A stretch of 64,000 nt of DNA, taken from the NCBI GenBank assembly GCA_973895155.1, contig OZ316896.1, positions 1,922,001 to 1,986,000 of the forward strand. Direction: 5' to 3'. The translations under genes were made by a program, and so were the position numbers. Of the stretch, positions 5,801-43,883 are shown in pieces; the stretch's first letter is position 1; the number at the start of each line of letters is the position of its first letter. The notes beneath the pieces were generated by a model. The model made no database searches. It was not told where the DNA came from and saw nothing but the letters and a program-made list of their open reading frames with translations. This stretch comes from Marsupella aquatica. Its lineage: Eukaryota; Plantae; Marchantiophyta.

Positions 5801-6156
5801 AGCTCTATGGCATCATTCAACTTGTTCATGAACCAAGTTTTTTTTTTTTAATGTTTGAATCCCGCAAGCATTTGTTAGCGGGTTGTAACAAATATACAGT
5901 GTGCTTTGTTGTTCTAAGGCAGCGAGAAACTCACTGTGCCGAGCATAACCTCACTGATGACAAGGTCTGAGTCTCCCAGCTTGTTATACTGAAGAGCCTG
6001 TTGCCCTGGCGGAGCTGCAACTGCCCTGATGCTGACCAGACGCTGCTGAGTTTGGCTTTGGTGCGGCAATCCATGTGGAAAACTGGGTCGCACTGAGCTT
6101 GGTTTCGAGTTCACTGCATTGAAGCCTCCGGGCAGGACTGCTGCCATGGTGTGCAT
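2877..6156 (-). CDS. Aldo-keto reductase, Tas-like, copy 1 (8 exons, probable plastid transit peptide)
   Basis: Exons read YNKLGDSDLVISEVMLGT|MTWGKQN...DTAEA|YPAP...|VIVASKV...SLKRLETDYIDLLQIHW|PDRY...|LRYIGVSNET...QNNYNLL|...SPLAGGALSGKY|...IIGATTLDQLKEN. The AKR D-Y-K-H catalytic tetrad is present. Confidence 0.93.
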
Positions 6157-9004: not shown

Positions 9005-12000
9005 TCAAAATAGAGAAGGGTCTCTGAACTTCTTGAACACGCTATCAATGTCGTCATTTATCTCTTGTGCAAGAGGTCTGGGGATTTGAAATGCGGAGAT
9101 GTTCTCTTTGAGCTGCTCCATGGACGTGGCACCAATGATGGTACTCGTCATGAATTGACGATCCCTACAGAATGCAAGGGCCAATTGTGTAGGTGTAATA
9201 TTGTGGCGCTTCGCAACCTCACAATAAGCCGCTACGGCATCCTGCAGCAGACGATTATCAGTTGTACAACCTCATCAGGGCTCTGTAACTCGACCAACGA
9301 AAACGCCTTCAATCCCACGTCTATGATGGGGTGTGAGGGTAACAAGAGGGACATGCTGATAATTAATTTTAATGCATTTGGATGCTGATATCTGCCATCA
9401 ACAACTTGTTACCAAACTCCGGACAAAAGAAAAGAGAAGCCTCGAAAGCTTACTCTTGCCAAGGACTTGTTGTATCGATCCATGAAGCCTGGGAATATTC
9501 CCAACCTTCCTTTCTTGGCCGTCTCAGCGTCCATGGTGATATACTTGCCCGTCAGAGAACCTCCAGCCAAAGGTGAGTACGCCAATAACCCAACATTTCC
9601 ATGCATCGGAGCACAAACCTCTACCAAGTCCACTGCCCACAAGAAAGCATACATATTAGAGATCGTAATTGAAACAATGGTCATCCAGAGTCGGAATGAC
9701 ATGGTCCCCCTATCAGATATTAAATTCAGTGGATATCCTAAATCGACGAAATCTACGATGAGAAGGGAACATAGAGTCCCCAGCATTTTTTAAGCGGCTA
9801 CCTTTAATGTCGCTATGACTTCACAATATACTGCAAATTGTGGGTACAGTAAAGTGTCACAACTAGAACACAGCAATTCCAGCGCACACACCAGACACTC
9901 CAGCAAGTTTAGATGTCTATCATCAAAATCTTGCGTTGAAAAACAATAAACAAGGTTGAGCAGTATTCTTAATCGGGGATTCTAGTCTTCGTACCTTCAA
10001 AGCGGGACCGGGCAAGCAAACTGTAACTATTTTGAATGCTGACTATCTTCGGCAGTCCCCGTGTCTTTGCTGCATAAAGAAACTCCATGACACCAAACGA
10101 TGTCTCGTTCGACACTCCGATATAGCGCACCTGCATTATGCAGATTGAGTTTTGAAAAATGCCACTGGAGGCTTTGGAATATAGATCTAGCTAAAGGCAT
10201 CCCTTCCGTCAGAAAATCCTAGTCAACGCGAAAAAATCCGACCTAAATCGTAAGAGGAAAGAGGATGCTATGATGGACGAGATCTCAAAATACAGTTCAA
10301 GGCATGGTCTCTGCCAGGGAGAATGAGCAGAAATAATCTCAAAAGCTGCCCAAACCAACCCTGGCAATCACGTTGCATCCTACTTTCCATCCAACTAATT
10401 AAAAGGTTCACAATAAAATCATTAAAGAGACTCGATTGTCCGTTGGACGGTCATACCTTCCCCTCTTGGATAAGTTCCTGGAAGACCTCAAGCTGCTTCG
10501 CGAATGGCACATAGTCACGGAACTTCTTGGCGTCGAACAGAGACTCTCCAAATAGAGGAGTATAGCGATCCGGCCTGAAAACCATGGAATCAGTGAGTGG
10601 GTCAACTCATCTATCTCCAGCAACTTAAAGTAAACTCATTCCAAAATTCTAACCTTCCCCTTTGTAATAACTGCTAACAATAAGGACTCCAAGTAAGCGA
10701 AGAGACTATAAAAGGAGTCAGAGACTAAATGGGCTTGTTAAATTAAAATACCAGTGGATTTGAAGAAGATCGATGTAGTCAGTATCAAGCCGCTTGAGAC
10801 TCTTCTCCACACTCTCCTTAATATTCTCACGATCCACACGAAGAACCTTCCCGCTATCACGAAGATGCGTAAGTCTTTCGGAATACCCAGCTACTTTCGT
10901 TGCTACAATCACCTACAGTTATCAAGGGTAGGGCAACGTCATTTCGAAATCCCTCTCAGAGAGTAACATATCATCCCAATGCAACTGAGTGGGCAACCCT
11001 TGGCCGAAATTCCCAAAAGTAGAGAGAGAATTGCTGACCTTATCGCGGGGCATTGTCTTCAGCCAGCCGGACACGATGCGATCTGTTCTCCCTTGCGTTT
11101 CCTTGTTCATTGGTATAGGATACTAAAACCTTCCAAACACGTTTGAGCATTCAGTATGCACGGCCATTGCGACACATGGCTGACGGTCTCCAAAGCCTAT
11201 TTATAATTCAGATAGCTAAACTTCGTGTCCTATATCGGATTTGAAAGCCATGGATGAACTTGCAGAACCTTTACAGTGAATGAATAACTCGCCATGGCCA
11301 CCAATTCAATACACTAGAGACTTCTAAGAGGGCAGGAAGGGCAGAGAACAGGGAGACACTTTGGAAGAGAGGAGCAGCAGAATGTTGGAGCGAAAGGAAC
11401 AGACGCGGCATAGTGCACAACAGAACTTAGAGGAAAATTGCGGTTGAGACAGCAGATATACTCACAGCCTCGGCAGTATCCAAAATGTTAATGCCGTGGT
11501 CGAAAGCGTAAGCAAGTTGCTCTTGACCCTCCTTCTCCGTGTTTTGGTTTCCCCAAGTCATCTGCTCGATCCATCAAAGCTTTAGCAACTATCGTAGCAG
11601 CTCAAAAAGCAATAGACAAAAGCCCATCGAGGAAGCATCGCCAGGAACTGCGGTAGAAATTCACAAATGCATGGAAGAAAAGATTGGGAGATCATAATCT
11701 CCACAGCTAGGTCTCACAGTCCATATCGATAGGTGAGCTTCACACAGACTGAATCTATGTGTCTCAAGCTGGTTGATCAAAAGCTCAAGGAGAAAGGAAT
11801 GGCAACTCAGTCACTACAGTAGTACCGATGGCTATACTTTGCAGGTACTCACCGTGCCTAGAGTAATCTCACTGATGACGAGGTCGGAGTCCCCTAATTT
11901 CCGGTACTCGAGGGCGTCAGCCTGCTTCGTCGGCGATGCAACCACCGCTCTCACCCCGCCACTTCTGTATTGGACATGGCGGACGTGTGGCAAGCCATGC

Positions 12001-12716: not shown

Positions 12717-13365
12717 GAAACGTGGGAGAATTATTCTCGTTGAGATACGATGCCAACGAAGGGCTGACAGCTTCGTTCAAGAGCGATCAAAGGATGTACT
12801 GTACCTTTTTTTTTATCGGATGTCCCCGAAGGAACAGGGAACAAGGATGTACTGTACATTGCGAAACAGTAAAGGCTTTCTTGAGTTTTTTGCTTTGTGA
12901 GGATTTATTTCCTGTCTAACCCACCTTGCTTTGAGTTCCCATTATCTAGACATATGTGTAAAATCCTGTTTGTTTAGAGTGCATTACCATGGGTTATAAT
13001 GCCCTTAAATAGCCACTACCAGTAGCCATATAAAAGGGGGAAGTGTCCTAGAATTCTCCCTTTCTCACATTCCACTCATTATTCTCCTCTACCATGCCAT
13101 TTTGCTCCACAATTTCAGCAAAATGGTGCTATTAAAGTCATGGCTAATGGTGGTCTAAACATGAGAGCTTCAGCTCTAATTTTGAGGGGTTATTATTGTC
13201 CATAATGTTACTAACTTACTACACTTAAAGTTCTGAGAGATTTTTCTTTTTCTAAGTTTAGTAGAAATAGAGAAGAATCTTCCAGAATAGGTGATCCAGA
13301 TCATGAAGGGGCAATATGCTCCTAGAATGCCCTGGAAAATACAAAGTGAACATTTGGGAAGGGCA

Positions 13366-13690
13366 TGTCACACCATTCTAGGTAGTGTTAGAGTGTCTCG
13401 TACTATCTAGATCTGTATGTTTGGTATGTGTGCTATATGAGCCGGTAATGTTCTATCAGGTTTGTGTGAGAGGGTACTTTTCACTTGTGAGGCATTGAAA
13501 GGTCATCTTTCAATGTTGAGCCTTGGAGAGGGGAGCTTGTGTGGTGGCTATGGTGGCTGAGAGCTTTCTCTATGTAGCGTGGATTCCTTGAGTGCAAGGT
13601 GCGTTGGCTCGACATATGTGTGTGATCGGATCGGACAGGATTGAGTGCGTATTGTTGGCCTCGATCGTTGTTTCGATTGTATTGAGATTA
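13366..13690 (+). repeat. Terminal repeat A1 (325 bp)
   Basis: Aligns without gaps to 22475-22799 with 8 mismatches counted by eye. Confidence 0.95.
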
Positions 13691-13701
13691 CATTGAAAGA
13701 T
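13690..13701 (+). promoter_or_regulatory. Putative self-priming primer-binding site (Tf1/sushi type)
   Basis: acattgaaagat, directly after A1, is the exact reverse complement of atctttcaatgt at 13505-13516 inside A1. No TGG-starting tRNA PBS is present. Confidence 0.6.
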
Positions 13702-13857: not shown

Positions 13858-14403
13858 GTTGGTAGATCGGGTCTGTATTATCATCGTATGCAGATCTGTT
13901 GGGCTAATCTGCTGTTTTTGCAAGGGAAACAGCCGCGGATGTTGGTAGATCGGGCATGCATTGTCATCATATGCAGATCTGTTGGGCCGATCTGTTGTTT
14001 TCGCAAGGGAAACAGCCGCGGATGTTGGTAGATCGAGCCTGCATTGTCATCGTATGCAGATCTGTTGGGCCAATCTGCTGTTTTCGCAAGGGAAACAGCC
14101 GCGGATGTTGGTAGATCGAGCCTGCGTTGTCATCGTATGCAGATCTATTGGGCCAATCTGTTGTTTTCGCAAGGGAAACAGCCGCGGATGTTGGTAGATC
14201 AAGCCTACATTGTCATCGTATGCAGATCTGTTGGGCCAATCTGCTGTTTTCGCAAGGGAAACAGCCGCGGATGTTGGTAGATCGAGCCTGCATTGTCATC
14301 GTATGCAGATCTGTTGGGCCAATCTGCTGTTTTCGCAAGGGAAACAGCCGCGGATGTTGGTAGATTGGGCCTGCATTGTCATCGTATGCAGATCTGTTGG
14401 GCC
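13858..14403 (+). repeat. 83-bp tandem array (~6.6 copies) in the retrotransposon 5' leader
   Basis: Units start at 13858, 13941, 14024, 14107, 14190, 14273 and 14356 (gttggtagatcgagcctgcattgtcatcgtatgcagatctgttgggccaatctgctgttttcgcaagggaaacagccgcggat). No unique spacers. Confidence 0.95.
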
Positions 14404-15075: not shown

Positions 15076-16671
15076 TTGGTCACCACGGATTCTTCTGGTG
15101 CTATTGGATTACCCGATGGACGACGGACCGGTTTCACTCGGAGTGGGGCACAGTTTCGGCCAGCGGCATTGGTAGCAGTCAGCAGTGCAGCTTCAGACAG
15201 TGATTCTGATGAGGACTCAGTGACCAGTTCTCCTCATCATCAGGTGGTTGCACCTTTGTTGTGGGATATGGATGAGATGTACGGGGCTACAAAGGGCCCA
15301 CGATGATACTCTGGTGCAGTTGGCACAATTGATCTGGATGACTTCATCCAGGAGTTTGATACGTGGTGCGATATGCAGACATTGCGTAACGCCACGTTGT
15401 TTACCCCTTTCATGGCATGAAAGGGATTATTTCAGCATTTGGAGGGGCCACCCATGGATGACTACCATGAGTTTTGGAAGGCTCATTTGGTTGAGATTGA
15501 GGCATGGAGGCAGCATTGGTCACCTAATTACGTGTCCATCACCTATGGCACTAGTGCGGCTGCCCAACCCATTGCCACAGCTGCTGCCTCTTCTAGCAGC
15601 ACTAGCCAGAGTGGCACACCATCCACCAACAGCACTCCAGCAGCATCCACTGCTACTCCTGCCGGTGTGATTGTGATAGGAACTGGAGTTGCGCCAGCAT
15701 TTAATCCTGTGGTGGAATTCTTTGAGGTACTGAAGCAGAACTATCAGGGTGTGAGAACTGATAAGTTGAAGGGTCTCCAGGAGTTCCAGCGCAAGACTGG
15801 AGAGAGTCTACGTGAGGCATACACTCGTATGCGCAGATTGATCACTGTCACCAAGGGAGTGACAGAGGCTCAAGCAGTCCAGTTTTGGTATGCAATTTTG
15901 GATAGAGAATTGCAACGCAGAGTAAGAGATGTCACTCTACTTAGGGATGCAGATCCCACATTAGCAGTTGTTTTCACCCTTTCTGAGCGTATTGAGCTCA
16001 ATATGGTGAATGAGAAGGTGGTGACTTCCGGATTTGCCAAGGAAGCACCAAAGGCTGCATCTACATCTACACCATAGCCTACTGCACGGAAGAGCCAGAG
16101 GGAGAAGCCTACTGCACGAGAGTCTACCAGCCAGAGACCTGTGCCCTCTTATGCTGGACAGCAGTCAGGATGTTGGACCTGTGGTGGGGATCATGCACAG
16201 AGATATTGCCCAGATCATAGAGGATCAGGGGGAGCATCAGCACCTGATCAGCGACAGTGTGATCATTGTGGAGCTCCTGGACACACCAAGGATAGGTGTT
16301 TCTCACTCCACCCTGAGTTACGAAGGGGAGGATCCCGTACACATGATCAGGGAAGAGGAGGAGGAGGTAGAGGTGGTGGACGTGGTCGTGGCATGCCACA
16401 TGTAGGGAGACAAGGAGGTGACGCTGCCCCTGCTGTAACCATAGATCCAAAGGATGCTAAGATTGCTCAATTGGAGCAACAACTAGCTGCCATGGCTAGT
16501 TCCCAGGTGAGACCTACTTCTGGTGATGGACCTTCCACATCCCATGGTCCTTCCACATCTTATGGAGCTGATGGAGATCTTGCCACCATGGGATTCATGT
16601 GTGGCACTGCACATATTGATGCATCAGCAGCTTTGACACGTGGGGCAGCCAAAGCTCTTGAGGAGCAGTAG
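15076..16671 (+). pseudogene. gag: Retrotransposon gag with two zinc knuckles, interrupted by stops
   Basis: One frame across ORFs 15076, 15439 and 16141: DLDDFIQEFDTWC..., FQRKTGESLREAYTRMRRL (capsid MHR-like), CWTCGGDHAQRYC and CDHCGAPGHTKDRC, then an RGG-rich tail. Stops at 15304, 15418 and 16075. Confidence 0.88.
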
Positions 16672-16733
16672 TGGAGCTAGATCCATAGAGGGGGGATGCA
16701 CGTCGGCAGACAAAGCTTCCTCAGTCTTTTACA

Positions 16734-17480
16734 TTGTCAGAGACAGTTCAGACTGCCTCTATGAACCCGGTTCGGACAAACCCTGATGTGGGTAAGTTGG
16801 CAAAATCAGGTAGTGATGCAGGAGGGATGACAGGTACCTTGCTGGGGGCGGCTACTGCCATGGTACGCGCCCCATTATTTTCAGCGACAGACATGCTGAA
16901 CTTGGAAGTTGGTCCTACAGAAGTGTTCAGATTGGCAGCTACACTCTGTGAGGACACTCCAGTTGTTGCTTCCCATGCAGAAGCAGCTTGCAGTGTTGAA
17001 GCAGTGAAGACCGTACCATCTACTGCTACTAGTGAGACATGGCATGCAGCAGCAGCGAGGTTGGTGGATTTACCAACACGCCCTGCATTTGAGAGGACTA
17101 GGTTTAAACCTAGTGTTGTGTCATTGGATAATCGGAGTGGTATCTTCCGATTAGTTGGGCTTTCTGGAGCAGTATACCAGCCAGAGAGAGTGTTACTGGA
17201 TACTGGTGCTCAGCCCTTGATGTCGGGGAAGTCTGCCATACGTGGATTGGGATTGCGTCCAGAGGATTTGGAGGATTGTCCCTTTCCCATTCAGACTTCA
17301 TTGGGGGGACCTACACCTACACAGCATATCACTAGGAGACCACTTGATTTGAGGATTCAGGAAGGTCATACCACAGATAGCTCACAGATACAGGCGTGAG
17401 CTATTCTAACTAAGGCAGAGTCATATGATGTGTTGGTGGGATGTACAGTGCTCTACCCCATGGGATTTATTCTTGATTTT
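16734..17480 (+). pseudogene. Retroviral-type aspartic protease region
   Basis: VLLDTGAQPLM active-site motif (~17190-17222) and a downstream YDVLVG motif. Stop at 17397 and a frameshift near 17480. Confidence 0.85.
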
Positions 17481-17899: not shown

Positions 17900-18860
17900 G
17901 AGGGTATTTGTTTGTTGAATCTTTTTGATGGGATTAGCACTAGATTGGCTGCTGTTCTTCAGGCAGGAATTCCTGTGCATCGTTATTTGTATGTGGAGAC
18001 AGATGAGACAGCACGGAGGGTCTCATTGCGACATGTGGCTATGTTGGTGGATAGATATCCACAGTTGCTGCCAGTGGATGTTGTTCGTGGTTATCAGTAT
18101 GCACTACCTGCTGATATTTCATTGTTGGGGGCGGATCATCTACATCATGTTGGTCCCATTGATTTGGTGATTGTTGGTTGGCCATGTTAGGGCCAATCTA
18201 GAGCTAACATTGGGCATGGACTTCATGATCCACGCTCTGCATTGTTTTGGGAGATGTTACGGGTGCTGCATCATCTCCAGCTACATCAGACACAGTCTCC
18301 AGCATACATTTTGGAGAATGTGCCATTGTTAGGTGATGATCATAGTCGGATTGTTGCCAGTGTTCACCAGGTGAGGTCTTGGATTGGACCTGCTGTGTTA
18401 TTGGATGTTGCACGTGTGGGTTCTCGTGCACATCGTCCACACTTGTAGTGGACTAATTTGATCCCATGTGAGGTGTTGAAGCGCGCATTTGATAGCATTC
18501 CACGCTCACCAGCCTTAGTGGTGGATGATATTTTGGATCCAGGGCGTCGGGCACAGGGTGTGACCCAACCTGATAGACCTCCATTGGCAATGGTCAATGC
18601 AGTTGGGCGCCCACGTTGTGCATTACCCACTCTTGTAAGCCACTCTGCTTCATATGCATTCAGAGCAGGTGACCCTGGACTTGTGTGGGACACAACTCTC
18701 CAGTAGTTAGTGGAGCCTACTGGTGATGAGAGAGAGCGTGCTATGGGATTTTTGATTGGCACCACTACAGTTGCCTATGTGTCAGAGGGTTTGCGGCGCC
18801 AGGTTCTTGGTCAAGCAATGGACCTGAATTGTTTGACTTGGATTATCAGCTTGGGAGTAG
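17900..18860 (+). pseudogene. C5-cytosine DNA methyltransferase domain (DNMT3-like) embedded in pol
   Basis: One frame, the same as RT. Motif I LNLFDGIST, motif II YLYVETD, motif IV IDLVIVGWPC*G (PCQ with TAG at 18188), DPRSALFWEMLRVL, motif VI YILENV, motif VIII SRAHRPHL*WTNL, motifs IX/X ERERAMGF...LRRQVLGQAMD. Confidence 0.9.
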
Positions 18861-19048
18861 CTGAACAGTTGCGGATGCGCTCTGCTGGAATTACTGATTG
18901 TCCCTTGGTGAGCTTGCGGTCCACTAAGACAGTATTCACCACAGCTGGGGGCGAGCAGATAGTCCATGAACCTATGGCAGGATTGGCCAAGGCTGGACAG
19001 ACTGTTGAGCAGGAAGGGACTGCTCAATCTACTGCTAAATAGCAATCA

Positions 19049-20520
19049 TTGGCTATCTCTTCTACCCTACAAAGAGATATTAGGGATTTGGTGGAGAGTT
19101 GGGAACCACAGTTTGGCCCTAAGTTAACAGGGGAGGAGAGACGTCGCATGCATCGATTCCTGAAGAGTTATTGGAATTGTTTTGCATTCAGCATTAAGGA
19201 TTTGGGGACACTGAAGGGCCTTGGTATTCAGATTGAATTGGCTAGTGATGCGCCAATCTTTCGTAGACCATACCGTTATAGTGACATGGAGAGAGCTCTG
19301 ATTCAAAGCAAAACTCAAGATTTGTTGGAGGCTGGATTGATGGAGATTTCATATGGGGAGTATGCATCTGCCACAGTGATGCCAGCCAAGAAGGATGTGC
19401 ATGGCAATTACACAGATAGGCGCATGTGTGGTGATTACAGACCCATTAATCGCCAGACAAAATCTGATAGATATGCCATGCCCACACCTGAGGAGATCTT
19501 TGATGTTGTGGGGCATGCAAAAGTTTTCAGTTCATTGGATCTGAGGGCAGGGTACCATCAGCTTCCAATTAGACATGCTGATAGGTCCAAGACAGCATTC
19601 TGGGGGATTGATTCTTATGGCAAAGATCATTTGTATCAGTGGTTATTCTTACCATTTGGGTTGAAGAATGCACCAGCTGAGTTCCAGAGAGTCATGGATC
19701 GAATCCTTGCAGGTTTGGATTTTGTCAGATGTTATATTGATGATATTTTGGTCTATTCTTCTACTATGGAAGAACATCAGCAGCACTTGCAGACTATGTT
19801 GGAGAGATTGAGAGCACATGGGTTGAAGCTTCATCCTAGCAAGTGTAAGTTCTTCCAAGACCAGATTGAGTATTTGGGCCACACTATATACCCAGGGGGA
19901 TTGGGTGTACAGCAGACTAAAGTGGAGGCCATTACACAGATTCCTTGTCCTACTGATGTGAGTAGAGTTTGTGCATTCTTGGGATTGGCGAGCTACTATA
20001 GGAGGTATGTTAAAGGATTTAGCCAGCTTGCTAAACCTTTGACCATACTCACTAAGTTGGATCAGGAATGGATTTGGGGTGATGACTAGGAGCATGCCTT
20101 TCAGGAGTTGAAGCAAAGGTTCGCATCATCCCCTATTTTGAGAAGACCCATTTCAGGCAGACCATTTCAGCTACACACTGTGGAGTAGGACTTGGAGCAG
20201 TACTGACTCAGAAGGATGATGAGGGGAATGAGTTTGTTGTGGCTTATGCCAGTAGATCAAACAATTCAGCAGAGGCTAAGTATAGCTCTTATGAGGGAGA
20301 GTGTTTGGCAGCAGTGTGGGCTGTTGCACACTTTTGTTGCTACTTGTTTGGTAACCCCTTCACCTTGATCACTGATCATCAGCCTCTTAAGTGGTTAATG
20401 GAGTCTGACAAGCTTACAGGGAAGCTTGCACGATGGGCATTGTTGTTACAGGAGTATGATTTCCAAGTGGTGCATAGGCCTGGAAAAGTGAACTTGGATG
20501 CAGATGGATTAAGCCGCAAT
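19049..20520 (+). pseudogene. pol: Gypsy reverse transcriptase and RNase H
   Basis: RRMCGDYRPINRQT, LDLRAGYHQL, LPFGLKNAPAEFQR, CYIDDILVYS, FLGLASYYRRYV; RNase H AYASRS...ECLAAVWAV...TDHQPLKWL...DADGLSR. Stop at 20087 and a frameshift near 20180. Confidence 0.95.
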
Positions 20521-20847: not shown

Positions 20848-22161
20848 TTGAGAGAACTGCATGATGGTAGAGTGTTGGTGGTCCCAAAACCATCACAGAG
20901 AGTACATTTGGTGCGACATGCGCACGAGGAGTTGGGTCACTTTGGTGTAAAGCGCACTTACAGCTTGCTGCAGACACAGTATTGGTGGCATGGAATGCAC
21001 ACTCATGTCCAGCAATTGATAGCTAAGTGTGTAGTATGTGATAGAGTGAGAGCATCATTTAATGCTCCCACTCCCCAGTTGCACCCGTTGCCGATCATGG
21101 GTTTGGGATATCGTTGGAGTTTGGATTTTGCTGGTCCATTACCTCTTACCCAACGTCATAATCGGTATGTTTTGGTCATGGTGGAGCACTTCTCCAAGTG
21201 GATTGAGCTAGTGGCATTGCCAGATAAAGCCAGTGGAGGAGTTGTTGCTACATTTTTGGATCATGTACTCAGTCATTTTGGAGCACCAGCTGAGGTGTTG
21301 ACTGATCAGGGAACTGAGTTCCGTGGAGAGTTTGAGAGTTTGTGTGAACAAGCTTTGATTGATCATCGTACTACCTCTTGTGATCATCCTAAGGCAGATG
21401 GATTAGCTGAGAGAGTTGTGCAAACTGTGAAGAGAGGATTGCGTAAGTATGGCTTGCAGGTTGGTCATCTGGGAGATTGGGATCTCCAGCTACCTTGGTT
21501 AGCTATGGGCTACCGTTTCAGTCGGCAAGCATCACTTGCATCCTTCTCACCTTACTTTTTGCTCTATGGTAGAGAGCCAGATTTGCCAGTAGCTATTCGT
21601 CGTGATGCTGCATCAGTTGTGAACTTGGATGATCCTAATGTTTGGGTCAAGGTGTGTTCAGAGAGAGCACGGGTATTTCAGCGAGTGATGCCCATGGCTT
21701 TCGACAACCTTGCCATTGCCCAACATCGTGATATTTTGAGGTATGCCACTATTCGTGGAGGAGGTTACCGTGCAAGCATTCAGCGATTTCATCCTGGTGA
21801 TTATATTTATTTGCAGCAGACAGCACCCACGACACTTGATGTGACCGCAGGCCGGACAATCTTACGTGTGCGTGAAGTATTGCCTTCTGGTGTCCTGATG
21901 TTGGAAGGGCGCGATGGTATGGTTTGGAAGGATCATGTGCGCAACTGTGCACCATGTCACCTTCCCAACATTGATGGTACAGTAGACCCAAGCTTGGCAC
22001 ATGTTCGTGCTGGCTTGAAATGTATGTTGTGTGGATCTGCTCAGGGAGCAGCTACTATGTTGATTTGTGATAAGTGTTCTAGAGGATGGCACATGTCATG
22101 TTTGACACCACCATTGCAGGTGATTCCTAGTGGATCATGGTTGTGTCCTCAGTGTCGGTGA
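20848..22161 (+). CDS. Gypsy integrase (HHCC zinc finger + rve core) with a C-terminal PHD finger; open segment of the decayed pol
   Basis: HEELGHFG...CVVC zinc finger; WSLDFAGP, VLTDQGTEF, DGLAERVVQT core. C-terminal CMLC...ICDKCSRGWHMSCLTPPL...GSWLCPQC is a C4HC3 PHD finger (~22021-22158). Confidence 0.93.
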   Translation: MRELHDGRVLVVPKPSQRVHLVRHAHEELGHFGVKRTYSLLQTQYWWHGMHTHVQQLIAKCVVCDRVRASFNAPTPQLHPLPIMGLGYRWSLDFAGPLPLTQRHNRYVLVMVEHFSKWIELVALPDKASGGVVATFLDHVLSHFGAPAEVLTDQGTEFRGEFESLCEQALIDHRTTSCDHPKADGLAERVVQTVKRGLRKYGLQVGHLGDWDLQLPWLAMGYRFSRQASLASFSPYFLLYGREPDLPVAIRRDAASVVNLDDPNVWVKVCSERARVFQRVMPMAFDNLAIAQHRDILRYATIRGGGYRASIQRFHPGDYIYLQQTAPTTLDVTAGRTILRVREVLPSGVLMLEGRDGMVWKDHVRNCAPCHLPNIDGTVDPSLAHVRAGLKCMLCGSAQGAATMLICDKCSRGWHMSCLTPPLQVIPSGSWLCPQCR

Positions 22162-22325: not shown

Positions 22326-22335
22326 AGGGGGGCGA
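22326..22335 (+). promoter_or_regulatory. Polypurine tract
   Basis: aggggggcga immediately precedes repeat B1 (ttgtggg...). Confidence 0.7.
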
Positions 22336-22936
22336 TTGTGGGTTTTGGACATGTGTGGACATGAGTTCCACTTGTATTTCATTCTCTTGTGTTTGTGATG
22401 TGGCAGTGTGACTATGTCTAGATGTATGTGACAAGCGATGTATGTTGTGTAGCGATGTGTATGCGCACGACAGCTGTCACACCATTCTAGGTAGTGTTAG
22501 AGTGTCTCATACTATCTAGATCTGTATGTTTGGTATGTGTGCTATATGAGCCGGTAAGGTTCTGTCAGGTTTGTGTGAGAGGGTACTTCTCCCTTGTGAG
22601 GCATTGAAAGGTCATCTTTCAATGTTGAGCCTTGGAGAGGGGAGCTTGTGTGGTGGCTATGGTGGCTGAGAGCTCTCTCTATGTAGCGTGGATTCCTTGA
22701 GTGCAAGGTGCGTTGGCTCGGCATATGTGTGTGATCGGATCGGACAGGATTGAGTGCGTATTGTTGGCATCGATCGTTGTTTCGATTGTATTGAGATTAT
22801 TGTGGGTTTTGGACATGTGTGGACATGAGTTCCACTTGTATTCCATTCTCTTGTGTTTGTGATGTGACAGTGTGACTATGTCTAGATGTATGTGACAAGC
22901 GATGAATGTTGTTTAGCGATGTGTATGCGCACGACA
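22336..22936 (+). repeat. Right terminus B1 (22336-22472) - gc - A2 (22475-22799) - B2 (22800-22936)
   Basis: B1 and B2 are 137 bp with 4 mismatches, and A2 matches A1. The B1/A2 junction is the perfect palindrome GACAGCTGTC (22469-22478). Confidence 0.95.
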
Positions 22937-25900
22937 GGCATGAAGAAACTGTAAAGGCTTTTGTGAGTTTTTGCTTTGCTAGGATTTATTTTCTACAATT
23001 ATGCCCACCTTGCTTTGAGGAACCATCAATCTAGGCATATGTAACTCAAATACAAAAGCTTTACCTTATAAACAAAATGGCCTAAAATCCTAGACCATTT
23101 TTTCACTACTATGTCACCTATTTGTAAGAGAGGAGCCATTTTTTTCCTAGGCAAACTTTAGTCTAAATCTATTTTACCTGGAAACTATTTTGGCTACTTG
23201 GAAAAAGAAGCCTGGAAAGATGTCAGATTTATCAAAATGGCAGGAGAGACTCACACAACCCACATGGACCTCAGCTAAACCCTCCTGTTTGCTCTGATGA
23301 TACATATTATATCACAGCTGACAGCAAAATGCTGCAAGAAAACAAGATAGTCGTCTCAAAATTGGAGCTCAGATTGACCCCCGCGTTTGCTCAAATTATT
23401 GGATATAATTTTGCAGCCTAGATGGACTGCAGCAAAACCCTCATTTTTTTGCTTATAAATATAGAACATATTACTCGGAAGTGCCCTATTGGGAATGTGA
23501 CACAGGACTTGGCCCATTTACATTAGCTGTTCAATTCATAAGCTTTCAAAAGCGTGGACAATCAAATCATACACTTCATTGAACACACTCACCCCAACCC
23601 ACAAGGGGTCATTCAGAAATCTTGGCATAGTCTGGGCATATACCTTAGACGGGACTGGGCACGACATTGAACCAGGATTAGGGCTGGAAAGATCACATTT
23701 GGGGATGCCCAACTTGAGTTCTCTCATGGCTTTGGTACTTGGGGAGGGCTTTGGGAAATCCATGAAGAAATATTGCAGGTCCCACTAGTCCCTCCACGTC
23801 CCCGTGAATTATTACTCTGGGACAGGTGTTTGGGGTTGCACTACGTAACAGGCAGACCGATAGGGTTTAAGACCTTATCACGGACCCACTGGAACCTGAT
23901 TCTCTAGGAGTGTGCTGTTCCCACTGTAGTTTCTAAATTGTTTGTTTCATTGCCCCTTTTCAGGGCTCAGCTCTTTGCCTGGTACCGGCCTCCCTGGTCT
24001 TAGCACTTTGACCTTTGGTCTTGTGGGCTGGTGTCTCTTTCTGGCCCCCCGTTTTGTATGTTGGCTATTTGAATGGAATTAATTTGGTTTTTTTGAGGGT
24101 GGACAATAAATCATTAGTACCTTTCTCAGTTCTTCATAAAACTAGAGATCTTAGAGTGGTTGAATTGATCTTGCCAAGAGCTTATAACCAGCTCAAGAAG
24201 AGCCAATTGAGTGGTCTGTCAAGGACAACATTGAAAGTTGAAACTAGAAGGAGTGAAGGTGTAAAAGGTGTCCAGCCCACGCCTGGGGTTGTATGGTTCA
24301 AGAGCAGCAGAACATATTTCCAGTCATCTTAGAAAATTGGTAGCTCTCTCAATTCTCAATGACATTTGGCAGGATGAGGCTCATTAGAACAGTTTTTTGA
24401 AGTTGCATCTTGTGGGCCTACAAATAGCCAATTTGTTTGAATAGCAAGGGGGACTAAAGAATAATGTTTTTGGTGAAATGTTTTTGAAGTGCAACAAAAA
24501 ATTAGAGGTGAAGGCATAATGGGTATCATGGTCCTACAGTGGGGGTTGGAGGGTTCACAAGGCTGTTCACAAGCTTGATCCATCCTGGCCTGGCATGTTG
24601 ACCCATTACAAAGGAGCCAATTAGCTTAAATAGGGTTTCCATCCCAAAGCTTTTTCTCACATAGGAATTCAAAGCATGCACAGGATCAAGGGATGAAAAC
24701 TTGCATTCAAACTAGAATGCTGTAGCTTTTGAGTAAAAAAAGCTCTACCTTCAAACAAAGACCATTTTCCCAGGATCACACCAGAGCTCAGAAGTTTGGA
24801 TGGAAATCCTTTCTGGTTTCATACAAAAGAAAATATTGAGATTTTGGCTCTAGTTTGATATTTAGGCTCCATTCAACTCACATTTGGAAATGTTATGAGC
24901 TGCCATAAACAAACTGGGTGTTGACACCAGCAAACAACAGGTTTCATGACATCCTAACTTGGCTGTCTGACACCTACTTCTTCTCCCTGTGACTGGAAAA
25001 TGGGCAACGAATTGCCAGGTTCATCCAACCTTCAACCTCACCATTCTAGATTAAACTCTTGATGCCAGGTTTGTATATCCAGAATAAGAGCCAACTCGCA
25101 TGTAGTAACCCACAATAGCACTTGTAAGACTATTAGAAGATTTTCTGTTGAACTTTCAGTTCAGCTTTGTGGTGGGCCCGAAAATGCCTCCAAATCTTTT
25201 TTCTGCACATAGGATTTCTGCTCATAAGATTCTGTGCATATGATTCTGAAAAATACAGTATTCTAAACTATAATACAATGTGCCGCCTTTTTATGCAATG
25301 GTAGTCATTCAAATTTGGAGTGGCTTTTTGGGTGAAAAACACAGAAACTGCAAAAAGTGGAAGGAATAAAGAACAAGTGAATATATTTAAAAGTAAATAT
25401 ACACAAACTTTTGACAGAAAAGGGCCAAACAGAGTACAAAAGAATAAACAAAAGAGTTCCCAAGTGGGCAAAACCAAATGCAAAAGAAATGAGCGGAAGG
25501 AAACCTCTAAGAACCAAGAAAGGGGAACTAAAAGTGATTGAAAAAGTGAATGCCCGTTTCTCCAAGCTAGAAGGAACAAGACAAAGTTCTCTTTACCATG
25601 CATGTATACAAATTAAGAGCTCTTCCGTCTACTATCCACCTTATAATCCTCCTCCCTCTACTATCCATGCTAGTTCTTAACTCCTTTTACCATCCATGCA
25701 ATACCATGCTCCTCTCTCTACCATCCATGCTATATCATCCATGCATACAGGTGCTACATAATGATAGTAGTTTAATTGCAAATATTACGTAGTCAATCAA
25801 GGAGGGCATAATCTAATCAATGAAAGAAAAAGGAGACCAAAAAGTAATAAAACAGAGGGAACCAGAAGGAAGGAAGGGGGGGGGGGGGCGGCGGGTATGG

Positions 25901-26009: not shown

Positions 26010-26789
26010 TCTTTTACTCAACTACATTTTTTATGCAATGAGATCTTTCTAACAAACAAAAACTTATACTCAAGCTATCTTTTGCAACATGGTAATTTTT
26101 CTCAACTACATCTTTAGCACAACGTATCTATTATGCATTGACATCTTTCAGTAAATCTTTTAGTTGACATGTTTTACATATGTGATGTAAGATTTAGTAC
26201 AATATGTGATTGTCTAAAAGATGTAATATGTAAGATTTAGTAAAAGTTTGTTGAAAGATGTCAATGCATAATAGATATTTACATATTACATGGTACAAAA
26301 AAGATGTCGTTAAGTAAAATATGTGATGTCAATGCATAATAGTCAAATCTTTCAACAAACATCTTTTAGTAAATCACATGTTTTGCGCAATGATATCTTT
26401 TTACTTAAAGACATCTTTTGAGCAACCACATATTTTACTTGACAACATCTTTTACCTACCAACATCATTTATTTAACTACATCTTTTGCACAACATCTTT
26501 TACTAAATGACATCCTTTGAGCACCACATATTTACTTAACGACATTTTTTGAGCAACCACATATTTACTTAATGATGTCTTTATAACTTAACTACATCTT
26601 TTACTTAACTACATCTTTTGTGCAAAGACATATTTTATTAACCACATCTTTTGGACAATCACATATTTTACTTAATGACATCTTTTTTGTAACAACATCT
26701 TTTACTTAAGGACATCTTTAATGCAACGACATGTTTATGCAACAACATCTTCTGTGCAACGCACGGGGATTGAATTCATACAATACTAG
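26010..26789 (+). mobile_element. AT-rich degenerate minisatellite ending in a Helitron-like 3' terminus
   Basis: Many acatctttt/ttacttaa motifs, then the hairpin ctgtgc-aac-gcacgg (26752-26766) typical of plant Helitron ends, and CTAG at 26786-26789. CTAG is followed by A rather than T, and the 5' end was not located. Confidence 0.45.
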
Positions 26790-29463: not shown

Positions 29464-29607
29464 ATAAGTATGTCTTCTTTGTGTCTACCTCTGTGCTATG
29501 ATTCTACATACTTTTAGATGGTTTCTATCAATCTACTTGGTGAACGGCAATCTAAATGCTCTTAGCGAAGCTGTTATTGTGCACTTTCGGCCCCTGGTAC
29601 TCGGATA

Positions 29608-30120
29608 ATGTCTTTGGCGCCATCGTTGCTCTCAACGCGTCCTCCTTACCGGATTGTCCGGGACTTTAATGCGGAAAGCCCATCAGACTGTGGGCACCGA
29701 GTGTTGTCGTGCTCTGCACTGCGGTGTGATGATAATCTCGGGAAGTCGATATTTCGTTCTCTCGCTGGTGCTGTGAAGATGAGTAGCACACCCGGCGAAC
29801 ACCCCTCCGTGGCCTCCAAAGACGGTGATGCGGAGGACGCCACTAAGACAGTTCAGGTGATCATCAAAGGAAAAGTTCAAGGGGTATACTACCGCAACTG
29901 GACAGTGGACACTGCGCGGCAGCTTGGTGTGAATGGATGGGTTAGAAACTTGAAAGATGGCTCAGTAGAAGCTGTGCTGTCTGGCAAATCTGCTGTCGTG
30001 CTCTCTCTTATTCAAAAGTGTCATCAAGGACCGTCGGCAGCCAGAGTCAGTACTGTGGAGACATCAGCCTGGACAGAGGAAGTTCCTCAGGGATTTGAGC
30101 GTAAGCCAACTATGTGGTGA
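29608..30120 (+). CDS. ACYP: Acylphosphatase with N-terminal extension (probable transit peptide), intronless
   Basis: [14 protein letters not shown]...[17 protein letters not shown] acylphosphatase signature with the catalytic R and N. Confidence 0.93.
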
Positions 30121-30780
30121 GATGACAACCCTTCTGAATTGTGTGTACACCCATCAAAAGTGATCCCAATTTAGTTGTACGATAGGGCCCAGTCTTGTCT
30201 ATCCTGTGGAGCAAATGTGCTTATGCCAATGAGCTGGTTACAGTTAGGAAAAGCAACAAAACGAAAGTGCAGATTCCAAGAAATCTTTGCGCAGCGTGAG
30301 ACCTAGCATTCTATTTTCTGCCCTCTCCATGGTAATGCACATGAGAAGATGAACAGAAAACCTAGGATAGGTTCCGACGGTCAGCGTAGCAGTGCGACTA
30401 GCAGCAGACGATTGTGTAAACCGAAACGAAAACTCCTTCGCAAGGGGGCCGCGAAATCCAGATTGTTCCAGGTTTCCTCCTTTCACCACCGAAAATATGT
30501 GGCCACATTACGAACAACTCTTATATACCGACGAAATTGAACCAGGAATTGGACTCGAGATTGGCCTGGCTACTTACGAGCCACATCCAACAGGATTGCC
30601 TGTAACCTAATTACTGACAGTAGGCCTCAAGCGAACCTTTTCGTGCATTGTTTCTCACTTTGAGTGGAGTTCTCTTCAAGGAGATCACTGCGGATGTAAG
30701 CACCAAGAAAGGGATTGCGCTTCCACACGGCAGCTAGGTAGCAAGGAACTGGTCTTCTCAGTTTGCATGACGTGAATGGG

Positions 30781-32583
30781 ATGGCACTCAGATCTCTGAG
30801 ATCACGTTGGCGTGATGGAAGTTTAGCAGGGGATTTTGTGGGCAGATTCCTGAACTCCTCTTGGGGTTTTAAAGGACGGGGAGCAAGACTTGATTTTTCA
30901 CGCGAGAGAATTGAGGTTGCGTGTTTCTTCAAATATGCAAAATTGGACAGTTATGGAAGATTTGCAGTGAATGCTCGAGCTGTTGGGCATCGTTCCTTTC
31001 CTGGTTTAGAACGAGGAAGAGAGTACTCCTTCGGGAGCTACGGAATTTCGGTCGAAGGAGGTTTCCAGAGCTGCAGCAATGTGAGGTATGTCTCAGGGGT
31101 ATCTTGGCAGGACGCAAATGAAGCGCCTCGGTTGTTGGTTGTCCAACCTCGAATTCACCCCCTTCCCGTACTCAAGGCGAAGCTTCTGGAGGCATTGAGA
31201 CTTGCAGATTCACTCGAAGACTCCAGACAACAGCAACAAAATAGCAGCCGGAACCAGAAGAAGCAGTTGTTGCCACCTTACGTCTTGGTGCAGAGCCCTT
31301 CGTCATCCGGCAGATCTTCTTCTTCCAAGCGTTTGCAAGCGAAGGCGTACTTTGGAGCTGGTACCATAGACATTATTCGTGCCCATGTTGACGAAATTTC
31401 GTCGCAAGGACGAATTGATGCAGTGTTTGTCAATGTTCCCCTTTCAGGCGTTCAACAGCGAAATCTCGAGGATGCATGGGGAAAACCTGTGTTTGATAGA
31501 GTAGGCTTGATTATAGAAATTTTCGGCGCCCATGCAAAAACCAAAGCTGCCAGACTCCAGGTGGAATTGGCGTCATTGTATTATAAGAGATCCCGGCTTG
31601 TGCGTGCCCGAGGAAGTAGTGGAGCTCGATTAGGTTTTGGTGCCGGTGGAGAATCTCAAGTTGTTAGTGCTCGTGGGCGGGCAACTGGAGCCATAGGTGG
31701 AGCTGGAGAAACTGAAATTCAGTTGCAAAGACGTCGAGTTGGAGAAAGGCAACACCGTCTGAAGCTGCTACTAGCTGAAGTGGATCGGACCCAGTCGCTC
31801 CATCGTGCTGCTAGGCAAAGGCAAGGACAGTACGCAGCTGACCATGGATCCCGCCTTCCTGTAGTGGCAGTCGTGGGGTACACAAATGCAGGGAAGTCGT
31901 CACTTGTGGCAGCATTGTCTCAAAGCAGCTTGTACATCGATGATAAGCTCTTTGCAACGCTGGACACACGGTCCAGGAGGGTCGTCCTCCCTTCAGGCCA
32001 GAAAGTCATCCTGAGTGACACTGTGGGGTTTATATCTGACTTACCAACTCAGCTTGTAAAAGCATTTCAATCAACATTGGACGAGGTTGTTGAAGCGGAT
32101 TATTTACTGCACGTGATAGACAGTAGTGCCCCAAACGCAAGTGACCAGCGAGAGGCGGTCTTACGAGTTTTGGAAGAGATTGGCACTCCGAAGCATAAAC
32201 TTCAAAATTGTCTGATTGAAGTGTGGAATAAGGCAGATTTGGCAGGAGGGGGCCAGGAAATCAGCAGAGCTTTGGGTCTTGAAGAAAACAAGAATAGCAG
32301 TGAACTCCATTATAATGGACAGAACTCATCTCAAGAAGATGAGTTGATTGTAGATACTGATCACGAACAATCTCATTTGATCCAAGCTGTGCATGTGGGT
32401 GAAAACATTACCGAGGAGAGGACGGAGATTTTGGGTATCGAGTGGTGTAATGAAGGCGTGTCATGTGTTGCAACTTCGGCACGCACAAAAATGGGTCTTA
32501 AGGAGCTTTGTCACCTTCTTGACAGAAAGCTACCTTGTGAAGTGGGAAGACAACCAGAAGTAGAAGTGGAGGGATCTTTTTGA
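30781..32583 (+). CDS. hflX: HflX-family GTPase, probably organelle-targeted, intronless
   Basis: DRVGLIIEIFGAHAKT...LQVELA, GAGETEIQLQRR, G1 GYTNAGKS, G2 FATLD, G3 DTVGF, G4 NKAD. First in-frame ATG at 30781. Confidence 0.93.
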   Translation: MALRSLRSRWRDGSLAGDFVGRFLNSSWGFKGRGARLDFSRERIEVACFFKYAKLDSYGRFAVNARAVGHRSFPGLERGREYSFGSYGISVEGGFQSCSNVRYVSGVSWQDANEAPRLLVVQPRIHPLPVLKAKLLEALRLADSLEDSRQQQQNSSRNQKKQLLPPYVLVQSPSSSGRSSSSKRLQAKAYFGAGTIDIIRAHVDEISSQGRIDAVFVNVPLSGVQQRNLEDAWGKPVFDRVGLIIEIFGAHAKTKAARLQVELASLYYKRSRLVRARGSSGARLGFGAGGESQVVSARGRATGAIGGAGETEIQLQRRRVGERQHRLKLLLAEVDRTQSLHRAARQRQGQYAADHGSRLPVVAVVGYTNAGKSSLVAALSQSSLYIDDKLFATLDTRSRRVVLPSGQKVILSDTVGFISDLPTQLVKAFQSTLDEVVEADYLLHVIDSSAPNASDQREAVLRVLEEIGTPKHKLQNCLIEVWNKADLAGGGQEISRALGLEENKNSSELHYNGQNSSQEDELIVDTDHEQSHLIQAVHVGENITEERTEILGIEWCNEGVSCVATSARTKMGLKELCHLLDRKLPCEVGRQPEVEVEGSF

Positions 32584-43127: not shown

Positions 43128-43883
43128 TTAGCAAGAACTCGGTGAGCCTGGGGCCATCAGCTCTACCTCGTGCGGTATGAAGTTCGAGAGGCTCGTCGAA
43201 TGTACATCTCGGGGTACATGTGTTCTCAAAAGATCTTGTATCAGAAATTCGAGTTCTGCAATCCGGCCCCTTTCTTCGGTGGTTGGCATGATACTCTTCT
43301 GGGCATCGCACCACTCTGGAAAGTGGGGCTCCAGTATCGCAACAAACTGAAGGCTCTGGGTCTTGGCGTCCAGTTTGATATCGGCCTCTTCGCAGAGCCA
43401 AATCGCGTCTCGATATCTTCTGCAGAAGAGCTGGAGATGTTCTCCGCTGTATTTACAGTCACGTAAATTGTTCCAGGTTTTGCTGGCATAAGTCCACTTT
43501 GGCCCGTCCCGCGCCGCCGGTAGCGGCCCGTATTGATCTCTCAGCTTGTCCCACAGAAGTTTTGCTGTCCCCCACTTGGCGTACTTCACGTGAATCATCA
43601 AATGGGAGGTATGTAGGATGAGCCTGCGGGCCTCCACAGAATTTATCGTAAAAAGCCTGAGACGTTTTTCGAAAGCAGGCAAGCTTTCGTCACTATGTCG
43701 TTCTGGTGGAGCAGGCGTTCCTTTGACAAATTCCAACATGTCATATTTTTCAAGCCGTAAGTAACACCGCCTCCCCCAAATGACGTAGTTCGAGCTCCCC
43801 TGAAGCAAGGGGATTCCGTCAAGAAGGTCCTCAATAACACAGCCACCGATAGCAGAGCTGCTCGGTAGATAACGCACACTCAT
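43128..43883 (-). CDS. Intact 251-aa ORF resembling a Ty1/Copia Gag N-terminal/capsid domain, without pol or LTRs
   Basis: ATG start. IPLLQGSSNYVIW...LEFVKGT..PP and EARRLI...TAKLLWDKLRDQYG match the Copia gag (DUF4219/UBN2-like) pattern as recognised by eye. Confidence 0.65.
   Translation of the reverse strand: MSVRYLPSSSAIGGCVIEDLLDGIPLLQGSSNYVIWGRRCYLRLEKYDMLEFVKGTPAPPERHSDESLPAFEKRLRLFTINSVEARRLILHTSHLMIHVKYAKWGTAKLLWDKLRDQYGPLPAARDGPKWTYASKTWNNLRDCKYSGEHLQLFCRRYRDAIWLCEEADIKLDAKTQSLQFVAILEPHFPEWCDAQKSIMPTTEERGRIAELEFLIQDLLRTHVPRDVHSTSLSNFIPHEVELMAPGSPSSC

Follow-up and report, generated by a model that had tools for sequence, protein, structure and literature searches.

The window, 64,000 nucleotides of the Marsupella aquatica genome, contains between positions 13366 and 22936 a dead Gypsy retrotransposon in which a DNMT3-like cytosine methyltransferase (DNMT) domain is placed between the protease and the reverse transcriptase (RT) (Table 1). 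To the left of the insertion are an Hsp90 fragment (1121-1570, +) and two tandem aldo/keto reductase genes (3300-6000 and 9400-12000, -), which are 70-80% alike and lie about 6.1 kb apart. To its right are coding stretches for ribosomal protein L6 (27031-27645, +), preceded by a degenerate 17-bp tandem array of about 21 copies (26359-26761), and for an acylphosphatase (29566-30120, +), followed by an HflX GTPase in a single open frame of 613 codons (30742-32583, +), whose protein shares 85% identity with that of Calypogeia fissa, 67% with Marchantia, 64% with Sphagnum and 57% with ferns, among 12 matches at E<=1e-150, values that would fit a leafy liverwort as the source. A Copia gag fragment (43128-43895, -), a POT/PTR2 transporter exon (53304-53897, -) and a CACTA-type transposase with DUF4218, Transposase_21 and DUF4216 domains (60148-62351, -) complete the picture.

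A preliminary description of this DNA had presented the locus as a Gypsy retrotransposon carrying its own methyltransferase, in a copy that is dead, and both statements hold, since gag and protease precede the DNMT, RT, RNase H and integrase domains follow it, and the copy has 11 premature stops and three frameshifts. Gag aligns with the Marchantia protein P0123 from residue 1 (55%), with a weak Retrotrans_gag match (E=0.014), and the Asp_protease_2 match is likewise weak in the focal copy (E=0.024) and reaches 1e-5 to 1e-6 in relatives. For the PHD finger at the integrase C-terminus, the nearest solved PHDs are those of CHD4, DPF3, ATXR5, KDM5 PHD1, PHF21A and UHRF1; those of CHD4, DPF3, KDM5 PHD1, PHF21A and UHRF1 are readers of unmethylated H3K4.

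Table 1. Positions of the parts of the Gypsy element within the window
Feature	Position	Strand	Remark
Left target-site duplication, GGCA, 4 bp	13362..13365	+	
Repeat A1, 325 bp, begins TGTC; left end of the element	13366..13690	+	8/325 positions differ from A2
Hairpin within A; 3' arm, starting at 13505, predicted to form the RNA 5' end and to act as self-primer	13493..13516	+	
Primer-binding site, complement of a stretch of repeat A in the same element	13691..13701	+	
83-bp tandem array, 6.6 copies, in the 5' leader	13858..14403	+	CpG o/e 0.92
gag, start of ORF1, two CCHC-like knuckles	15268..16680	+	3 premature stops, frameshift near 16660
Aspartic protease, LLDTGAQ	17085..17474	+	Stop at 17397, frameshift near 17478
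DNMT3-like C5-cytosine methyltransferase domain, 321 codons	17897..18859	+	3 premature stops
Family-wide in-frame stop TAG, then CAATCA; end of ORF1	19040..19048	+	Stop codon itself 19040-19042
Reverse transcriptase, in frame past the stop	19043..19900	+	RVT_1 E=2e-35
RNase H	20164..20520	+	RT_RNaseH E=1e-32; stop at 20087, frameshift near 20182
Integrase, H2C2 zinc finger and rve core	20890..21570	+	E=5e-16 and 1e-13; upstream stops 20809, 20827
PHD finger, integrase C-terminus, then natural stop	22021..22161	+	PF00628 E=9e-11
Polypurine tract abutting B1	22326..22335	+	Also conserved in the moss-type family
Repeat B1, 137 bp, ends GACA	22336..22472	+	4/138 positions differ from B2
Palindromic B1|A2 junction GACA-GC-TGTC, predicted integrase site	22469..22478	.	
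Repeat A2	22475..22799	+	
Repeat B2, right end of the element, flush against A2	22800..22936	+	
Right target-site duplication, GGCA	22937..22940	+	

The translated DNMT domain, with X at its stops (18188, 18446 and 18704), matches PF00145 at E=3.7e-7 and 30.3 bits, above the cutoff of 22, which bears out the family assignment put up for checking in the preliminary description. As a single sequence, its best match in the PDB is DNMT3A (E=1e-11), with tobacco DRM at 0.003 and HaeIII at 0.02, while a profile of the family gives DNMT3A at 5.6e-24, DRM at 2.9e-14, DNMT2 at about 1e-8 and HhaI at 7e-6, and no DNMT1, MET1 or CMT chain among its 57 PDB matches at E<=10. An AlphaFold model of the domain (pLDDT 91.6) matches the fold of DNMT3A/B over its length (E 1e-17, TM 0.73). 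Judged by profile and by predicted fold, the domain is nearer to DNMT3 than to DRM, DNMT1/CMT, DNMT2 or the bacterial enzymes. The DNMT3 likeness claimed earlier is thus upheld for the whole domain but not for the 'LFDGI' motif, which resembles DNMT3A by chance, because its Asp is private to the focal copy (absent from all 58 related proteins whose motif I can be read and from all 42 aligned loci); in this copy motif VIII also has its second Arg altered. The catalytic PC is retained in 41/42 loci. Motifs I, IV (PC), VI (ENV), VIII, IX and X follow one another unpermuted 3' of the protease, in an intronless stretch that shares the RT frame, as had been described, although a stop codon that is family-wide separates the DNMT from the RT.

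Searches for relatives of the DNMT returned 206 proteins of similar length (120 of them listed) and 34 longer ones. The sources named among those listed are Marchantia, Calypogeia, Riccia, Sphagnum and Closterium, the bryophyte proteins having 52-73% identity, and the nearest relative among those listed is P0122 (82% identity), which is open from before the protease to its end. A metagenome scan added 118 related stretches, the best 80 of which represent 64 distinct copies, mostly of one family that matches Sphagnum-named proteins by eye (moss-type, hereafter), together with the lineages L053 and L102. The order protease, DNMT, RT, RNase H, integrase and PHD recurs wherever the metagenome contigs reach.

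A conserved stop between the methyltransferase and the reverse transcriptase

A stop codon at the same offset before the RT is present in 52 of the 54 loci that hold both the DNMT end and the RT start and, once duplicates are collapsed, in 44 of 46 distinct copies, 43 of which have CAA next; across the RT, these loci have a background of 120 stops in 13,833 codons (0.0087 per codon). The TAG at 19040 is therefore not a product of decay. The 46 distinct copies comprise 30 with TAG-CAA, 13 with TAA-CAA, one with TAG-TAA, one in which the stop is shifted by a base, and L102, which has two TAGs a few codons earlier. The stop is kept in the focal copy, L053, L102 and the moss-type family despite their differing linkers. 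Proteins of other families (from Marchantia, Calypogeia and others) end 78-163 residues past motif X, and four of them are gag-protease-DNMT frames about 1430 residues long; the ends of P0122 and P0168 coincide with that of the focal frame, and P0148/P0172, P0147 and P0150 have no stop, so that the frame runs on.

The stop divides the coding region into ORF1 (gag, protease and DNMT) of about 1260 codons and an RT-integrase frame of about 1040 codons. Because the DNMT closes the gag-protease frame ahead of the conserved stop, it would likely be made at Gag level, and the conservation would therefore mean that the element needs the enzyme in quantities like those of Gag, so that fewer roles come into question for it. 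The six bases after the stop, CAATCA in the focal copy and CAACCA in L053, both fit CAR-YYA, the plant-virus readthrough consensus known as the six-base signal of tobacco mosaic virus (PMC2194720), which is reported to give 6-10% readthrough in stable Arabidopsis lines (PMC2754532). Judging from this context, the RT-integrase is probably made by readthrough of the stop. In-frame stops are described as setting the ratio of structural to enzymatic products likewise in MuLV gag-pol, SIRE1 pol-env and Tca2 (PMC2194720) and in Ogre (PMC6317226), but here the stop lies past both the protease and the DNMT, whereas MuLV uses a pseudoknot (PMC2194720) and Ogre splices (PMC6317226). The similar in-frame stop of Candida Tca2 is reported to show no readthrough in yeast (PMC2194720). 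In the moss-type family, the largest, the stop is followed by CAACCC, one base off the consensus, and an in-frame ATG stands at +7, two codons past the stop, so that reinitiation is possible there.

The RT-integrase could alternatively arise by splicing with the TAG as 3' splice site, by reinitiation or from an internal promoter, and in each case the DNMT would still be made at Gag level. We regard this as unlikely. The TAG fits a YAG acceptor after which the new exon would begin in frame, Ogre elements are described as splicing between gag-protease and RT (PMC6317226), and the Marchantia and Sphagnum gene models P0126, P0127, P0133 and P0149 are spliced over the stop point; however, the junctions of these models differ from one another, and the 60 bases before the focal stop are only 20% T and 40% pyrimidine, with T below the element average. 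The recurrence of CAA after the stop in three families also speaks against this alternative. As for reinitiation, the ATG of the moss-type family speaks for it, but no Met follows near the stop in the focal copy or L053, the first in-frame ATG of the focal copy being at 19148, inside the conserved RT start.

Split repeats, self-priming and integration

The element is laid out as A1, coding region, polypurine tract, B1, two bases, A2 and B2, with GGCA on both sides, and its repeats diverge at 12/463 positions. At the B1|A2 junction the right end of the element, two bases and the left end form a 10-base palindrome, and the moss-type family has the same layout, polypurine tract and B|A junction. 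Among 19 distinct right ends, six are B-A-B, 11 end after B1, one is a B-A cut by the contig end and one is rearranged; B precedes A in none of 23 distinct left ends, and no A-B-A...B form was found among them. A 4-bp target duplication is exact in five of eight two-ended loci, has one mismatch in two and is absent in one; the duplicated sequences are GGCA, TACA, TTCA, CACA, AAGG and CATA, and the NCGN target preference of Phygy is absent.

A 12-nt perfect complement joins positions 13690-13701 with 13505-13516 inside A, a length reached by one of 5000 shuffles; the primer site lacks the TGG start typical of tRNA-primed sites, and its pairing with the hairpin is present in the RNA fold. In the moss-type family the complement has the same position but other letters and the pairing holds, extending to 17 bases in L103, L099 and L100; measured from the end of A, 14 of 23 distinct copies have their best complement at a distance of 170-172 bases, and a TATA-like box stands about 30 bases above it. 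The fold z-score of the region is weak in the focal copy (-1.8; 11/200 shuffles) and strong in L103 (-4.0). With the transcription start itself a prediction, this pattern argues that reverse transcription is very probably primed by the RNA's own 5' end. Self-priming elements, including Tf1/Sushi and Tcn1, are likewise described as having a primer site that pairs with their 5' repeat (PMC6317226); those, however, are chromoviruses with ordinary paired LTRs, whereas here the repeats are split and a PHD finger stands in place of a chromodomain. Membership of the chromoviruses, Tcn1 included, was rejected, as the PHD is present and no chromodomain appears at E<=0.1.

At the A2|B2 seam the primer-site boundary is joined to the polypurine-tract boundary, in the focal copy and in the B-A-B loci alike, uniformly within the family. 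A single copy, recovered twice (L095:12542-13438 and L097:4923-5819), consists of an inverted A piece, A, letters of the primer site and B, in this order, flanked by an exact 4-bp duplication, and looks like an aberrant cDNA junction; its seam still contains the primer-site letters, in the manner of circle junctions. Since the seam joins primer-site to tract boundary and one copy keeps primer-site letters, the cDNA ends were likely joined.

Under the mechanism that we propose, the RNA would begin in A1 and prime its own reverse transcription, and ordinary reverse transcription would yield a cDNA with B-A at both ends, which would be joined flush. The integrase would then open the palindromic B|A junction by a staggered cut, leaving two CA-3' ends with two-base overhangs. 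Such ends are the substrate of DDE integrases. Two-repeat circles would give A...B-A-B copies; the A...B copies would come from one-repeat circles or from later recombination of B1 with B2. On balance we lean towards this route of end-joining and opening of the B|A junction. The presence of split-repeat ends together with a DDE integrase suggests that integration proceeds from a circle junction, which in retroviruses is a side reaction; as the normal route of a family, it was not found in the literature searched. Foamy-virus integrase has been reported to cut a palindromic circle junction (PMC1180852). As a plain two-repeat circle has two equal junctions, A-B-A...B forms would be expected, and none was seen; the left junction becomes double-stranded first in ordinary reverse transcription, and this may be the reason for its sole use.

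The layout A1...B1-A2-B2 is also that of the PAT, Ngaro and VIPER elements (PMC6681497), and copying of their kind, in which the internal B|A junction serves as template for closing and rebuilding the ends and the RNA passes B2 on without end-joining, would account for the use of a single junction. The identical repeat layout (PMC6681497; PMC5890265) and the uniform A2|B2 seam in the family agree with such copying, but a primer site right after A1 and a polypurine tract right before B1, both needed by ordinary LTR replication, are conserved, a DDE integrase with 4-bp duplications takes the place of the absent tyrosine recombinase, and the L095/L097 seam holds primer-site letters. It is thus an improbable, though not negligible, alternative to joined cDNA ends. 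Membership of the DIRS, PAT, Ngaro or VIPER groups was itself rejected on the rve and H2C2 integrase, the 4-bp duplication and the lack of a tyrosine recombinase. Around the predicted integrase site (22459-22478), two CpGs are kept in the focal copy and the moss-type family, the coding region being CpG-poor; as a speculation, methylation of these CpGs could regulate integration.

Possible role of the enzyme

The protease would free the DNMT from Gag-protease, and the enzyme, abundant in the particle, would methylate the cDNA before integration, so that the new copy would arrive marked like host heterochromatin, while the PHD finger would tether the integrase to nucleosomes. We hold this chain of events with slightly less than even confidence. 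As for the overall reading, an ORF1 of gag, protease and DNMT3, a readthrough product of RT, RNase H, integrase and PHD, and a Gag-level DNMT that would methylate the cDNA before integration, we find it on the whole somewhat probable. Base composition gives no sign of self-methylation, because the low CpG o/e of the element (0.17-0.45, against 0.7 around it) is shared with the neighbouring CACTA element (0.32, equally low), and the ratio exceeds that of the flanks in L070, L103 and L118; CpG depletion was accordingly rejected as an indicator, being unspecific.

Two Symbiodinium retrotransposon DNMT3s (SymbioDIRS-Dnmt3) methylate CG in yeast, and in the published account they are the only retrotransposon DNMTs shown to be active (PMC5890265). 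The bryophyte host DNMT3s, in turn, methylate non-CG sites of transposons, and given these two precedents the methylation context cannot be read from the motifs. The Klebsormidium element KnitGypsy-Dnmt3 gave no methylation in yeast, a result that its authors called inconclusive and that human DNMT3B shared in the same assay (PMC5890265).

Instead of the cDNA, the enzyme might act on chromatin, where methylation of the element's promoter, of its leader array or of other elements would limit copy number. A Gag-level amount far exceeds the need of one cDNA, the 5' leader holds a CpG-rich 83-bp array, and dampening that benefits the host is listed as an option by de Mendoza et al. (PMC5890265), but the enzyme, being fused to Gag and protease, would be expected in the particle, and ORF1 has neither a nuclear-targeting nor a chromatin-reading domain. 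Chromatin as the target is accordingly a rather remote prospect. Still less probable is that the domain is retained for binding nucleic acid or as a structural part and is no enzyme at all; its catalytic loop differs from that of DNMT3A and the Klebsormidium domain was inactive in yeast, but the negative result with human DNMT3B weakens the latter point, and in the alignment across families no columns are conserved better than those of the SAM-binding motif, PC, ENV and motif X.

Relatives, selection and known systems

The DNMT of the focal copy differs from that of L052 by dN 0.26 and dS 1.66 and from that of L053 by dN 0.27 and dS 1.70, and its dN/dS is 0.15-0.18 between families, so the neutral evolution against which the preliminary description had proposed to weigh its claim is not borne out; the domain is kept across the family under purifying selection. 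It is less constrained than the RT, for which dN is 0.15 between families with dS saturated, and among decayed moss-type copies its dN/dS is 0.56, while RT, RNase H and integrase have 0.35-0.40; near-full DNMTs without a stop number 4/43. The stop-bearing land-plant group is one clade in both the DNMT tree (56 rows) and the RT tree (20 rows), with SH-aLRT 99, and adjoins Closterium-type elements without the stop. These were quick IQ-TREE searches with SH-aLRT only, in which host DNMT3 was absent from the rows and five phage methyltransferases, one on a very long branch, formed the outgroup; a scan of viral contigs (51 loci) gave only phage C5-methyltransferases with 24-42% identity over part of the domain. 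That the focal copy alone captured a host DNMT3 retrocopy, evolving neutrally, agrees only with the decay of this copy and can be set aside with near certainty, given the 206 and 34 related proteins, the 118 metagenome stretches, the same DNMT position in many copies, the low dN/dS between families and the agreement of the DNMT and RT trees.

The kinship with DNMT-bearing algal retrotransposons anticipated in the preliminary description is supported by the Klebsormidium nitens protein P0198 (GAQ93235.1), in which a protease is followed by a DNMT with which the focal domain shares 35% identity across 316 residues (E=5e-54). Both P0198 and its sister P0152 stop 10 residues past the DNMT, and the K. 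nitens element may therefore have a break after the DNMT too. In the quick DNMT tree with the long phage outgroup, K. nitens and the land-plant clade form an unresolved fork. KnitGypsy-Dnmt3 was described in 2018 as a DNMT-bearing Gypsy (de Mendoza et al., PMC5890265), and according to that description it resembles the present element in its gag-PR-RT-RH-INT structure, its intronless unpermuted DNMT3-related domain, its DIRS-like A-coding-B-A-B repeats (per the figure legends) and its purifying selection (Ka/Ks < 0.2). The description, however, covers a single alga and places the DNMT 'in the Pol ORF' (PMC5890265); here the hosts are liverworts and mosses, and the DNMT shares the RT frame but is cut off from the RT by a conserved stop. 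The text of the description that was available has no occurrence of PHD, and neither readthrough, self-priming nor an integration model was seen in it (PMC5890265). Thus a retrotransposon DNMT3 as a kind was already known from KnitGypsy-Dnmt3 (2018; PMC5890265), and what is added here are the conserved stop, the split ends with their palindromic junction, the self-complementary primer site and the integrase PHD.

SymbioDIRS-Dnmt3 is described as also having a DNMT3 inside the polyprotein and A-coding-B-A-B repeats, but it is a dinoflagellate tyrosine-recombinase element, unlike the present one with its DDE integrase and 4-bp duplications (PMC5890265). The EpiLTRs of Cymbomonas and Euglena are, similarly, LTR elements with both a DNA methyltransferase and a reader of histones, but they combine a DNMT4-related enzyme with DAM and a chromodomain, and their authors call them distinct from the streptophyte Gypsy-DNMT3 (bioRxiv 10.64898/2026.05.21.726589, as far as its text was available), a name that later papers cite to de Mendoza et al. 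2018. Two further assignments were rejected: Troyka, for its reported CG..CG termini, 3-bp duplication and restriction to animals (PMC12440569), against TG..CA and 4 bp here, and Tat/Ogre, defined by an additional RNase H of archaeal type, since one RNase H was found among the frames scanned and the slot between PR and RT holds the DNMT. No description of the land-plant family, its stop, its priming or its integration route was found in the literature searched, which excluded subscription journals, Repbase, figures and bioRxiv supplements; this agrees with the preliminary description, which knew of no well-described land-plant family, although relatives exist in Marchantia, Calypogeia, Riccia and Sphagnum.

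Why retrotransposons keep a silencing enzyme has been a question since 2018, when the hosts were only Symbiodinium and Klebsormidium. Open-frame gag-protease-DNMT relatives carry annotations as ordinary genes in Marchantia (Mp4g09160, Mp8g17980), and the question of role becomes testable because Marchantia offers genetics, methylomes and met1 mutants along with these relatives. Were a self-primed, circularised and pre-methylated lineage true, it would amount to an epigenetically self-sufficient retrotransposon in a model liverwort. The wider proposition is a doubtful one: a large green-plant and algal Gypsy lineage, present in Marchantia, would have its own mode of replication, with self-primed circularised cDNA, integration through an internal palindrome, a capsid-level DNMT3 pre-methylating the cDNA and a PHD picking the nucleosome, and would hold the DNMT at two polyprotein places in hundreds of families. 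On the practical side, these elements will be mis-called by LTR finders built for paired terminal repeats, and element DNMTs can inflate counts of host methyltransferases in bryophytes. The Marchantia gene models Mp4g09160, Mp8g17980, Mp6g11220, Mp2g26090 and Mp8g15430 (P0123, P0125, P0127, P0136 and P0146) are element pieces annotated as genes, and a literature search with three of these identifiers and Mp6g11220 found no paper.

A profile search returned 511 clusters at E<=1e-30, and 160 proteins were examined for architecture, 146 of them new from the best 150 clusters and 14 from earlier. The DNMT follows gag/protease or precedes the RT in 25 of these, follows RNase H or precedes the integrase in 89, and stands alone in 46. 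The RT-RH-DNMT-INT proteins, for which no description was found in the literature, form a separate group in the DNMT and RT trees. In this second architecture (P0151, P0153, P0178, P0197 and others), the DNMT lies after RNase H or before the integrase, often with a C-terminal PHD, in single frames of up to 3456 residues.
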